A stretch of 63,048 bases of DNA, filler included, from Dugesia japonica (Eukaryota), in the NCBI GenBank assembly GCA_001938525.1. It is 6 parts of 6 records of this genome, joined end to end, with 100 filler letters (N's around TTAATTAATTAA, not from the genome) between each part and the next. Parts side by side here need not be neighbours in the genome. Positions count along the whole stretch, not along the records: positions 1 to 13,085 come from MQRL01498614.1; 5 more parts are not named here. One strand, given 5' to 3'. Position numbers and translations under genes: made by a program. Shown here piece after piece: positions 1 through 11,872 of the stretch. The notes beneath the pieces were generated by a model. It worked only from the letters and a program-made list of their open reading frames with translations, did not search any database and was not told the origin of the DNA. The first letter of the stretch is position 1; every line of letters begins with the position of its first letter.

Positions 1-340
1 TTTACAACTCAAGTGTTAATTTTATGGAAACAAATAACAAAATAAACGATTCTGAGGAAACTACTTACACACAAGAAGTAGACATTCAAATTGTAATGTG
101 ATTTACATTTCACAAACATATTATCATTTAGATAAAAACTCTATCAGAAATAATTCNNNNNNNNNNNNNNNNNNNNNNNNNNNNNNNNNNNNNNNNNNNN
201 NNNNNNNNNNNGAGTTGTTTTCAAATATTTTTATGAATAAGTTAGATTATGATTATGAAGTAAATCTTCACTGGAAAACTAAATATAATCATTTTTATGT
301 TAATAAAGAAAATGATGAAATGTTAGATGATTTATTCTGA

Positions 341-465
341 ATGTTAAATGTTGGATTTTACTTTCTTGATGAAAAATTTTAAATGTTGGATTTTACTTTC
401 CTGATGAAAAATGTTAAATGTTGGATTTTACTTTCCTGATGAAAAGTGTTAAATGTTGGATTTTA
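341..465. repeat. 35-bp tandem repeat, ~3.6 copies, between convergent reading frames
   Basis: Unit ATGTTAAATGTTGGATTTTACTTTCCTGATGAAAA at 341, 376 and 411, with a partial copy at 446. Confidence 0.9.
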
Positions 466-511
466 GATGGGTCTCTTTGGTTGTTGGATTTTACATAAGA
501 TATTTAGCGTT

Positions 512-1030
512 CTACAGAGCGCATTTTTCATCATTCATACTACGTCTAATTTCTTCATCAACAATTTCTTCAATCAATTTAAAATTTGTGTGAATCTTAT
601 AAAATGAAAATTTACTAGTTAATATTTTTGGAAAACTGTCTGCTAATCTACTAAGTTGCATTAATTTTTGAATGTATCTAATTGAATAATAAATTTCTAT
701 TCCACATAAAATATTTATAAATTCTGAAGATTTTTTAAATTGTTTTCTTAGTATTATTAATAATTTTCCTAATTTGGAATAAGCAATTAAACTTATTTGT
801 TTACTTTTAATTAATACATCACTCCAATAATAAATTTCTTCTGNAATTCTTTTCTTGTCTAAATTTTCATAATTAACTAAAGTTTTTTGTTCTAAGATTG
901 ATATTGGTTTGAAAGATTTTAAAATCTCTTGTTTAAAATTTAATTTCTCATCAAGCTTTTGTAAAATATCATCATCACTTTCTAAAGGTTTATATTTTTT
1001 CTTATTTAATTTTCCTTTTTTGATTACATT
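512..1030 (-). pseudogene. Hypothetical viral coding segment lacking its own start codon (probable continuation of the acidic-repeat gene)
   Basis: Long stop-free minus-strand frame read by hand (KKYKPLESDDDILQKLDEK...YSIRYIQKLMQLSRLADSFPKIL...). Confidence 0.4.
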
Positions 1031-1035
1031 TTTTT

Positions 1036-6930: not shown

Positions 6931-9900
6931 TTATAATAAAAATATACATGTTAATGTTTTATTTATTAAGTCTAATCTTAAATGCCAATCATCACAATTT
7001 TCACATTCAAATTTATTTCCATGTGGCCATGTTTTGGTTCCATTATTTTCTATCATTCTTTTATCATGATATCCCATTAATGCTATCTTTATTTGTTTTA
7101 CAACTTCAATTTCATGTAAGTTGGATGTTAAAGAATAATATTTTCCATAAATTATTTTCTTTGGATCATTTAAAACATCAAAATCTTTCATCATGTGTGG
7201 GTTATTTTTCTTAACACCTTTATTTCTATAATCAAACTTCATTTGTCCTTTGTCAATATAACTATAACCATAAGATTTTGCTTTTATAAAATCACCTTGA
7301 ATTATTTCACAATTAGGCATTTCATCTTTCATCTGAAATAAATCATTTTCTAATAAACTTTCTAATTTTGTTAAATTATCTCTACATTTTATCTCAACAA
7401 AGACGCAGTCCGTGTCACTGAAATGAATTTTATAATTATCGTTTCCAATTAATGGATCCATTTGTTCATATATAAAATTATACATTACTTATTTTGCATG
7501 TTCAAGTATTGTGAAACCTATACATGGAAATTTGTTATATTTTAATTTTCCTTTTATCATATGCATTGCCGCAACATTAGATTCATTACTTTCGTTAAAT
7601 GTGAAAATTTTACTTGATTTAAAAGTTATTTTAGATGCAATTTTTTGATAATATCTGTCATTATCTACAATTTCTATGTCACACATATTTCTAATATTTT
7701 CTAGTGTTTTTCCATTAAATGCATTCAACATTAATTTATAAATATAATCTCAAAGACATCACTGTTTCTTTTGGCTTCTTTTCTTAAAGCTACTTATTTA
7801 TGAACATGATTTTTAAACCATGGAGATGTTTTCATTGAAATTTTCTTGTGAACTTTTATTAGTTTCATTCCTAGTTTTAAATATAAATCTAATGTACTTC
7901 CAAATACAACATAATTTTTCTTATCATATTGATTTAGTGTAAGTTTAATATTTTCCTTTGGTATTTTCTTATTAAAACCTTTTTGGTAATTACTTAACAT
8001 TTTAGTCTAATATTTATTCTTTCTGGACATAATGGGAAATATTTTGTCTTATCATGTATTTGTGGTGGATAATCTAAATAAACTTCATAAATAAAATTAA
8101 TGTTATCAGTTGCTGTGTCATATGTTAAATCTTTACGTTCACGCATTTCACTGGTAGGTAATGGTCTTGTCATACAACTTGCATATAAAAAATTTTCATC
8201 AATATATTTTATAAATGTATCTTCTATTAAATCATCAAGATCTTCTTCAAGGAGATTTATATCACCCCCATTAATTATTTTTTTAAATCTTCAATTTCTC
8301 GTTTATTTAATTTTTTATTTACATCTCGTGATTTATCATAACTAAACAATCGTCTTTGACCTAAAACACCAGAATATCCACCTCTAATTCCTTCTTCAAT
8401 CATTAAGAAAATATCGTAAGTTTCTGGTTTAGCATATTTCAAATTTACATTAGCATTTAACATTACTGTTTCCCATGCATAAACTGGTGCTGAATAAGAA
8501 TAACATGGGTCTAATTCAATAATATTGTTTAAACATGATTCACGAAAGTTTTCTAAGAAATCTGTTAAAATTAAAACATCTAATTTCATATAATGTAACA
8601 TGTTATCCCACATATTTTCGTGTTCTTCAAAGTCATTTAGAAATATTTGATAGGCTTCATCAGATATTTCTTTTTGATTTAGTGTAATAAAGAAATCATT
8701 TTTTGTTGGTGTTTGGTTTGATTTTAATAATTGTTCAACTTCTTGAATATTAGTTCCTTTTACATATTCATATGGAAAGTGTGGTTTCCTTGGTCTTAAA
8801 TTAAATGAATTTAATGTTGGATAATTATTTGATTGTGTTAATAATATTTCCATTACTTCAATTGATGTAAATGGAAGTAATCTTGCTGAATCTAAAAATT
8901 TAATATCTTCATATTGAAATGAAATGAAATTGTCTGTTGAATGTGGAATTATATTTTTAACTTTTGATGGGAAGTTTGTTAATAGTTTTCTAAAAAATAA
9001 ATGGTTATCATAACCTGATGCATTATGAAAATAAAATGGTATAAATAAATTTTTAACAGAAAGATCATTTAAGTTACATTGATTACATGAATATCCTCGA
9101 AATTCTCCATTTAAATGATTATGATCTTGAACTGGAGTGCCACGTATTTCTTTATCACAATATCTACATTTTGTCTCAGATGTAAAATCTGGAACTTCAC
9201 TTGTAATTTCTAATATTAATTTATTTTCTTCCATGTCTTGCAATTTATTATTAGTTTCTTCTAAAAACTTAAAGAATTCATCATAAATGTTTTCACCTGA
9301 AAGTTCATAATATTTACTTTCTAATAAATTTGTGTAATCACTTTTGAGATAAATCCCCAATAATATTGCTTTTTGTTTTTTATCTGAATTTGTATATGCT
9401 TCGAAATCTCCAATAAGTATAAATGGTATTTTATTTTTCTGATAATATTTATTAAATAATAATAATCATTATATTCAAAAACAATGTTATTTGGTTTATG
9501 TCTAATGCATGAATCTTGATGTTTCATTAAAACCTCGTCGCTTGAATAACAATTCAAACATCTAATACATGGATAATTTCTATTTCCATTTTTTGCAAAG
9601 AATACAGTTAAATTTCTACATAAAATATAGTGATACATTATACACTAACAAATTACATTTATTTTCTTCTGGTGTTGAATTTCTTGTGTAATGTGAAATG
9701 TGTAATGGTTCAAGTTTTTTATTATCATTTACACCAAACACATTTATTTCTAAATTATTTAATTTCTCAAATTTATTTATATCATCAATGTTCATAGGAA
9801 ATTTAAAACTGTGATATTTTAATTCTGTTAAATGTGGAATGTAATTTTCTACTCCTGTTGGATTATATAGAAAACATTTATTATCTTTATTTTTTATATT

Positions 9901-10696
9901 GATTACACCTGGTTTTTGAAATGGTAATTCGCAATATGTTGCACCAACCAATGATTGATATTTACTTAAATCTAATATGTGATCCACAATATGTGGCATT
10001 GTACATCCTGAGCCTTCTCTATCCTTATCTTCAATATATTTTTGTAATTCATTAAATATTTCATTAACACTATTTTCAATTTCACTTTTAATTATAAATC
10101 TTTTATTTATAGAATATGATGTAAAATCTCTTTCAACATTTTCATAATTTATTTCTTTTGTATATCTACATTTAACTGTCATACTTATAAGAATCTTTNN
10201 NNNNNNTTTAAAATATTTTCTAACAATTTCTTCTACTTCATCTTGAAATGCATTAATTTCTCTAACTAATTCATATATTTCATCCACATTTAATTTCATT
10301 ACCACTTTACTTTCTTTGAAATATTCAATTTCATAATCTTTTATATTCTCTTAATAAATCTCTAATTTTTAGTTTGTGATTATTTACTTCTCCACCTGAA
10401 TGATTAAGTACCATTTTTTTATATTTGTCACAATTATAATGTCTTCTTGCATGATTTTGTCTTCGAAATCTTTTATTACAAATTTCACGGAATAATGGAA
10501 CAATAATTAGATTTCCACATTTTGTTGCATTTAAATGTTCTTGTAAACCATTTTCTGAATTGAATTTTTTACCACATTTTTCACATTGAAATGGTTCATT
10601 TTCTCTGTAACAAATTTGAGATCTAACATGTCCTTTTAATCCAGCTAAATTTTTAAACACTTTATTACAATTAGAACCTCTGTTTGTGTCACTCAT
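6931..10696 (-). pseudogene. Protein-primed family B DNA polymerase (pPolB) with N-terminal C2H2 zinc fingers, frameshifted into at least 7 ORF pieces
   Basis: C2H2 fingers (CEKCGKKFNSENGLQEH). Endonuclease-VII-like DHNHLNGEFRG..CNQCNL. Exonuclease FHNASGYDNHLF, FLDSARLL and YMKLDVLIL. Polymerase motifs GIRGGYS, YIDENFLYASCMTRPLP (read by hand ~8150-8210), EVYLDYP..IHD..FPLCPE, KLMLNAFNGKT, FSDTDC and C-terminal DKR..TWPHG. Confidence 0.95.
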
Positions 10697-10832
10697 GTTA
10701 TTTTCTATAGAATTAATTTAATCATAGACACACTAAAGGGGGTTGGTTTCCTCTTAAATATCTCACTCCTTTTTTTATTTTATATTATTTCCTCTTAAAT
10801 ATCCATCGCACATTTTTGTGTGCGAAACGAAT

Positions 10833-11160
10833 ATTTTACACTCAACATTTTACATTAAAAATATTTCACTCAACATTTTACACTCAACATTTTACACTCG
10901 AACATTTTTCACTCGATAAGTTACTTCGTATATTTTTCACTCGACATTTTTCACTCGAACATTTTTCACTCGATAAGTTACTTCGTATATTTTTCACTCG
11001 AACATTTTAAACTCAACATTTTTTTTTCATAAAAATATTTTACTCGAACATTTTTCACTCGAGCATTTTTCACTCGAACATTTTTCACTCGAACATTTTT
11101 CACTCGACATTTTTTTTTCAAAAAAATATTTCACTCAAAATTTTACACTCATCATTTTAC
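10833..11160. repeat. Subterminal ~14-15-bp tandem array (TTTTCACTCGAACA)
   Basis: Many directly visible copies with a 57-bp higher-order duplication, upstream of pPolB. Confidence 0.9.
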
Positions 11161-11872
11161 ATAAAAAATATTGAATAAAATATTTTACATATAATATTTT
11201 TTGGTACGGTAGTATACCCCCTGAGGTAAAAAAGTAATTATACCATTACTTATATATATATTGCATTTCATTAGTATTTCTTGTAATTAAAAAAAATGAA
11301 TTCACCAATTATTGCGAATTTAAAGAAAATGTAAGAGGATTTTAGTAAGAAAGGTTTGATTTTTTTATTAATTTTATAATTTAATTAATAAATTTAATTT
11401 AGAAATGTTAACGGATATATTGGAAAAACGTGGATTATTAGACGAAGAAAGGAATACAATGCTCCAGGAGCCCATAGTCGACCAATATATGGCTGCTGAA
11501 TTTTGCTCAACTGATTGTTTCGGGTGTGCAAAGTTTAATCTGATGGTTTCCATGGAGAATCATCGGATCTAACTCCAGAACTATGACAATTATTTTTGTT
11601 TTCATTAATTTGTTTTAAAATCAAATAAATGTATTATTATAATTCAGTCTTTTTAATTATTTATTTATTTTTTTTTAGTTTTTAGTGACAAAATAGTGAC
11701 ATATAAGTAGTGACAATTTTTCATAAAGACATATAAGCTGAGAACTTTTCTGATAAAAATTATAAAAAAACATAGAACTTTATCATAAACTTCATTAAGT
11801 CATGGCACCTTTCCATAAATAACTTATAAGTCTATATATAAAAAAAAACTTATAAGTAAATATTTTGATATC

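Follow-up and report, generated by a model that had tools for sequence, protein, structure and literature searches.

Polintons are elements in which a protein-primed family B DNA polymerase (pPolB) replicates the linear DNA starting at its termini and an RVE integrase inserts it, while a major capsid protein (MCP), a penton, an ATPase and a protease would form the virion. The window analysed here, a stretch of 63,048 nucleotides joined from six parts of the Dugesia japonica assembly GCA_001938525.1, opens with about 11 kb in which such an element is recognisable and for which a first-pass annotation had reported no MCP, ATPase or integrase. The locus thus raises the question of whether these genes lie to the left of the window or are missing altogether, which would make the element helper-dependent or segmented. 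We are highly confident that these 11 kb are the right-hand part of a decayed Polinton, that its ATPase gene is cut by a young insertion resembling a long terminal repeat (LTR), that its integrase and MCP genes very likely lie on another contig, C244422, and that hundreds of sister copies carry a predicted intein in pPolB. In this part, window coordinates are those of contig C498614, and window position 1 is the start of that contig.

The left edge of the window is composed as follows.

1..69, plus strand: right-hand end (...CA) of an LTR-like TG...CA insertion, young, high in copy number and about 0.4 kb long, inside the ATPase gene.
70..74, plus strand: 5-bp target-site duplication of the TG...CA insertion; the same 5 bp stand before the insertion's left end on C244422.
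70..340, plus strand: 3' half of the A32-like packaging ATPase gene, by match to sisters, with an N gap inside (tblastn match at 71-337).

All 40 scored matches to nt 1-69 are 99-100% identical and most of them lie at contig ends, while nt 1-27 have 116 exact matches. One whole insertion (L224) measures about 418 nt, starts with TG, ends with CA and is accompanied by a 5-bp duplication. Nucleotides 70-156 match 40 scored ATPase copies at 94-100% (the window itself included; sisters 94-98%), which nt 1-69 do not, and RNA reads depart from the window after nt 69, with 19 and 13 loose ends. The insertion at 1-69 therefore accounts for the break of the contig. The ATPase fragment has no Pfam match of its own; the whole gene, complete with Walker motifs, is present in sisters (PF04665, E 8.1e-10, above cut-off). 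Of the absences reported for these 11 kb, those of MCP and integrase stand and that of the ATPase does not, as half of the gene is in place. Several TG...CA insertions, which may be solo LTRs or ends of a longer element and have internal tandem repeats and 5-bp duplications, sit inside Polintons (L194, L223).

The junction was searched for with a pattern made of the ATPase sequence followed by TG, which gave 13 matches. Twelve are a sequence variant, and one, on C244422, has the matching left junction, in which the repeat's left end follows the same 5 bp that follow the repeat in the window. On this contig lie the 5' half of the ATPase gene, a PLA2-RVE integrase whose frame is open, and the capsid gene's 3' end, the protein matches being rve (PF00665, E 4.1e-10, above cut-off), PLA2 (E 1.3e-6) and a weak double-jelly-roll match (E 0.0063). 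Because the ATPase is interrupted at the same position and the 5-bp duplication is the same, C244422 is very likely the left part of the window copy and the carrier of its integrase and MCP genes. The suggestion that the genes lie left of the window was thus a sound one: the ATPase is cut at 69/70, and integrase and capsid are on C244422.

The family of this element holds a second feature, in the polymerase itself. An insert at pPolB motif C was first noticed in three sisters; L104:621-1214, L100:2180-2758 and L256:1255-2169 are examples of it. In the window copy the site is empty.

7413..7414, minus strand: empty intein site at pPolB motif C (SD|TD), read from the sequence; about 30% of matching family junctions are occupied.

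Exact matches to the motif-C junctions number 518 occupied and 1196 empty, with 0 for reversed controls, counts that rest on slightly different patterns for the two states, that diverged copies escape and that haplotype duplicates may inflate on both sides. The 27 complete inserts comprise 13 open mini-inteins (191-211 aa), nine broken mini forms, two open long forms and three broken long forms. The insert is predicted to be a self-splicing intein with a Hint fold. S1, the block-B His and the terminal Asn are present in 13/13 open mini-inteins and the block-B Thr in 11/13; the +1 Thr is also kept at motif-C inserts and, as it belongs to the search pattern, is not independent evidence. With the model of the insert, the first 38 PDB matches listed by Foldseek are inteins or intein-like (BIL) domains, the best at E 5.3e-5. 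A profile built from the insert retrieves 2415 proteins, mostly PolB with inteins, and D|SVT...N|TD junctions occur in 108 of the 120 matches listed. Of 150 candidates scored in an 'endonuclease' search, 94 matched; its query overlaps mini-intein sequence and hence provides no count of long forms. No RNA data set was listed as containing the intein locus, and RNA there amounted to 0, 11, 0 and 1 partial reads in four runs, with no junction spanned, too few to judge expression or intron-type removal.

Among the alternatives, the one that survives best, unlikely as it is, holds the motif-C insert to be an intein relic or a Hint-like domain which does not splice, its bearers being copied in trans by polymerases with an empty site. 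Such a relic would fit endonuclease motifs that look decayed, the 12 broken frames among the 27 complete inserts, and the excess of empty over occupied alleles (2.3 to 1). It would also fit a penultimate residue that is Lys, not His, in 13/13 open mini-inteins, and this residue weighs against a functional intein together with curated scores below cut-off (PF14890, best 24.7 bits against 35.8; TIGR01445, 20.5 against 24.5), a modest model of the insert (pLDDT 62.7, TM about 0.4) and a long form that gave no LAGLIDADG match in the one copy scanned. Lys occupies this position in viral PolB homologs too, and His in related Polinton inteins; to our knowledge, a penultimate His is not invariant among inteins. 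Broken frames, for their part, are equally typical of every gene in this decayed family, and the catalytic S1, His, Asn and +1 Thr have been retained. Moreover, constraint is much stronger on the splicing parts than on the linker, with a median pairwise dN/dS of 0.38 in the N part, 0.97 in the linker and 0.21 in the C part over 78 pairs of open mini-inteins, a result that shows apparent purifying selection on the splicing parts and is exposed to the objection that the pairs are non-independent and come from open-frame copies only.

The history of the insert was read from a tree of the flanks, with 390 columns and 39 rows (23 empty, 16 occupied) after L271 and L276 (long branch) had been dropped from 41. 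On this tree, intein presence takes 13 state changes, against 12.6 when shuffled, and the starred branches force at least 7; a single clade for the intein-bearing copies is rejected (p-AU 9e-53). Such scattered presence points to repeated gain, loss or recombination, and on a tree of 390 columns recombination alone can explain it, a further point to set against the reading given here. Taking the insert as a predicted self-splicing intein, its entry would have occurred by endonuclease-driven homing between co-resident copies, and its self-excision after translation would be required for polymerase function. The inteins of this genome would mostly have decayed to mini-inteins, kept by selection on splicing, and these may have moved or been lost through recombination among thousands of copies.

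Related inteins are found in other assemblies. Four Polinton-type polymerases (P0002, P0029, P0059 and P0090) carry same-site inteins with LAGLIDADG matches. In the cluster of P0090, which has 136 members on contigs of up to 1 Mb, seven of the 15 members listed have an intein and four an empty site. Over 1042 aa, P0090 and P0150 share 99% identity, and the differences cluster at the intein site, as co-conversion or resistance would give. Same-site LAGLIDADG inteins span both polymerase classes (P0090 cluster, P0029, P0059, P0002, P0028). Related inteins also occur in type II topoisomerase-like proteins (P0001, P0104), with a similar D|SVTGDTP...N|TDG junction.

Concerning the left part of the element, two observations count against C244422 as the continuation of the window copy: no read or contig bridges the two, and the left terminal inverted repeat (TIR) and 6-bp target-site duplication (TSD) of the window copy were not seen, because C244422 ends inside the MCP gene. 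It is accordingly conceivable, if very improbable, that the window holds an ordinary Polinton whose left part was deleted or left unassembled, and that C244422 belongs to another copy. There are thousands of copies, the TG...CA insertion is often met in Polintons, as in L194 and L223, and a bridging read is lacking; however, the same element would have to have inserted a second time, in the same orientation and at the same base, and such a junction was present in only 1 of the 13 matches.

The layout of the family was mapped by searching 37 contigs (41 stretches) with 16 natural proteins, the contigs being a non-random set picked by one-gene match and length. From the first TIR, ORFa, MCP, PLA2-RVE integrase and ATPase form one block, which converges on a second block read from the opposite end, that of pPolB, pX-like gene, 280-aa protein, penton, protease, repetitive gene and TM gene, closed by the other TIR. 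Summing the two blocks gives an element of about 16 kb. They are joined convergently on 22/37 mapped contigs, and most others end within a block. One contig (L093) combines MCP and integrase with pPolB but lacks the ATPase, and two more (L037, L040) are continuous from pPolB to ATPase. The MCP of a sister matches PF21738 (E 1.2e-12, 48.2 bits against a cut-off of 27). As for family size, a 1-kb piece gave 3476 first-look candidates, and the capsid protein 6544, of which 150 were scored. The gene order of the window, described as unusual in the first-pass annotation, is therefore the family's standard arrangement in two convergent blocks, and the Polinton identity proposed there holds, with pPolB, ATPase, integrase, MCP, penton, adenain and TIRs all found in the window, on C244422 or in sisters. 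Least probable of all is a helper-dependent or segmented element, that is a polymerase, penton and protease segment that depends on another element for capsid, ATPase and integrase: the window itself lacks MCP and integrase, and non-autonomous copies with internal deletions do exist (most of pPolB in C647930, the ATPase in L093), but half of the ATPase is inside the window, a matching left side with MCP, ATPase and integrase in the Polinton arrangement exists in C244422 and in sisters that carry these genes beside the polymerase-side ones, none of the 37 mapped contigs showed a polymerase block with TIRs of its own and no capsid and integrase block, and the linkages on 22 of them and on L093, L037 and L040 refute the proposal at the level of the family.

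TIRs with AG...CT ends are represented by one end in the window and by both in the sister contig C647930, which has an integrase above cut-off for PF00665. Beyond its TIR, about 180 nt at each contig end (L031:1-180, L032 end) form a further perfect inverted pair, probably an assembly artefact, and the repeat of these outer 180 nt recurs at window 12800-12984. Polintons duplicate 6 bp of their target; the element ends here sit in (TA)n tracts, which blurs the reading of that TSD.

PLA2 is fused to the integrase, 10/31 PLA2 frames reading through into the integrase motif, and the pX-like gene is separate; a zinc finger-PLA2-RVE integrase fusion stands at L031:3136-4497 and L192:621-2033. Both domains occur in 105 of 120 homologs listed, one of them from the coral Oculina patagonica. 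The fusion was considered as a novelty and dropped as common in databases, though a single literature search turned up no description of it.

The remaining features of the window copy, from its terminus leftwards, are as follows.

11251..11260, unstranded: (TA)n target within an unrelated host repeat; Polinton-free loci run through the TA tract.
10816..11250, minus strand: subterminal 14-15-bp repeats and element terminus 5'-AGTAAT, with an inverted counterpart at both ends of sister contig C647930.
6931..10696, minus strand: pPolB (PF02945, E 1.2e-5, and PF00096 in the window piece).
About 9070-9177, minus strand: EndoVII-type domain of pPolB (PF02945).
N-terminal part of pPolB, minus strand: C2H2 fingers (PF00096).
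6403..6927, minus strand: small Gly/Ala-rich gene with GLYLNP repeats, putatively labelled pX-like; premature stop.
5571..6413, minus strand: conserved 280-aa protein; frame uninterrupted, sisters align.
About 4696..5411, minus strand: penton (minor capsid protein), split over two frames; identified by the fold of a sister copy.
About 4311..4666, minus strand: adenain-type maturation protease with a premature stop; identified by Peptidase_C5 look-alikes of the sister protein.
2703..4222, minus strand: long internally repetitive gene in four pieces; putative fibre role.
2113..2697, minus strand: LYPxL protein with a hydrophobic hairpin (LYPxL-TM), uninterrupted and conserved in the family.
512..1524, minus strand: acidic-repeat gene, variable and split over two frames (1524-1036 and 1060-512), with a 21-nt repeat.
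305..465, unstranded: 35-bp tandem repeat at the meeting point of the two convergent gene blocks.

The terminus at 11250, 5'-AGTAAT after the TA run, is common to five other loci with different flanks, and at Polinton-free loci (L126, L129, L135, L137-L140) the same flank continues through the TA tract. The ACATTTT-type subterminal motif (10816-11200) recurs between genes at 5460-5560 and 2051-2114, possibly as promoter or replication signals of the element.

The window carries a dead copy. Measured against sisters, the 280-aa and LYPxL-TM frames alone run without a break, and pPolB is spread over at least eight stop-to-stop pieces. The minus-strand run from pPolB to the acidic repeat was given in its correct order, and the abutting of its genes holds only in part, most of them being broken in this copy; as had been noted, 29 bp (4667-4695) separate the penton stop from the protease ATG. 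In Pfam, the 22 Polinton frames of the window gave only EndoVII and zinc fingers above cut-off; gene identities were taken from sisters. Sister pPolB pieces match PF03175 and PF00136. The penton was identified by structure prediction, the model of a sister copy (pLDDT 72.6) matching the mavirus penton in Foldseek at E 8.8e-7 and further viral minor capsid, penton and LO5 proteins at E about 1e-9. The protease gave nothing significant by sequence in Pfam or the PDB (four chance PDB matches, none relevant), while clusters of look-alikes of its sister protein carry Peptidase_C5 with scores of 0.95-0.97. The labels 'pX-like' and 'fibre-like' have no support in Pfam. What had been listed as separate 'fibre-like' and 'unknown' genes is present in the sequence, and the two look like pieces of one gene, longer in sisters. 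The LYPxL-TM protein is 75-91% identical to its sisters and met no curated family in Pfam searches. A 182-aa acidic-repeat frame is matched by sisters L018, L025 and L040, and we infer that the acidic-repeat gene is one frame in some of them. Window 512-2052 is a hypervariable slot between the ATPase and TM genes, as in L018, L024, L025, L026 and L037; its proteins have differing acidic repeats and a common C-terminal helical domain. RNA from three runs covers the window in scattered partial reads, on both strands and at a depth below 3, too sparse to judge expression.

Outside the Polinton, window 12140-12370 contains a tandem repeat of ~50-60 nt with TTTCAAGGTCA and CTGATTGG motifs. The exon of a host gene for a BAP1/Calypso-like deubiquitinase lies at 35757-36785 on the minus strand (PF01088, E 9e-38; PDB, E 5e-38), and the Wnt family has 34 matches above cut-off in the genome; together they point to an animal host. 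At 39427-39915, 46718-47338, 51118-53283 and 60557-62527 lie remnants of retroelement protease and reverse transcriptase (RT)/RNase H, in two copies separated by 9.5 kb, and part of a hAT transposase.

For the element as posed, the finding of absent genes was an assembly artefact, and 'missing' Polinton genes at the start of a contig are a warning to inspect the insertion junction. With animal Polintons/Mavericks (adintoviruses), as presented in the portions consulted of PMC8502044, the family shares pPolB, RVE integrase, FtsK/A32 ATPase, adenain, hexon-like MCP, penton, TIRs and the presence of degraded germline copies. It differs in that PLA2 fronts the integrase, whereas the Alpha virion modules in that source have a separate PLA2X gene (PLA2 with a C-terminal pX). 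No gasdermin- or cupiennin-like gene turned up in the family, where no profile search was aimed at them. The window pPolB piece is 32% identical to the EndoVII-bearing pPolBs P0059 and P0090 (E 1e-34 to 1e-53), and its match to the PF03175-strong P0002 is marginal (E 0.024). This pattern would fit a Beta-type/group 1 pPolB divergent from PF03175, a tentative label. In the pages consulted of PMC10748475, the HNH-bearing pPolB2 of nematodes and oomycetes belongs to group 2.

HNH/VSR insertions in Polinton pPolB have been noted before (PMC11071308, PMC10748475, each in the parts consulted), and the former suggests that pPolB endonuclease insertions stem from intein invasions. In those parts, neither a Hint domain nor splicing motifs are reported for these insertions, whereas the insert described here has both and lies at catalytic motif C. 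PMC10748475 contains neither the word 'intein' nor 'HINT', and 'intein' is absent from the text and one supplement of PMC8502044, as far as these were available. No report of Hint-type inteins in Polinton pPolB was found in the literature covered, a search with subscription journals, Repbase and InBase outside it. The survey of Green (2018), in its available part, describes inteins as absent from metazoan genomes and uses this absence as a rationale for intein-directed antimicrobials (PMC5784728). Set against it, we regard the following as just on the probable side: that animal nuclear genomes hold inteins by the hundreds in Polinton pPolB motif C, that the whole homing cycle is represented here (empty sites, decayed endonuclease forms and splicing-competent mini-inteins), that LAGLIDADG forms are now invading related Polintons, that there is exchange with large DNA viruses, that Polinton replication can depend on protein splicing, and that this is undescribed. 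The profile of the insert retrieves PolB inteins of large DNA viruses, phages and archaea at 29-57% identity, and the motif-C inteins of these groups, as documented in the consulted part of PMC5784728 and in PDB entries 9hth, 8cpo and 5oxw, have the same site (D|SVTxDTP ... N|TD) and the Hint fold predicted for the inserts of this family.

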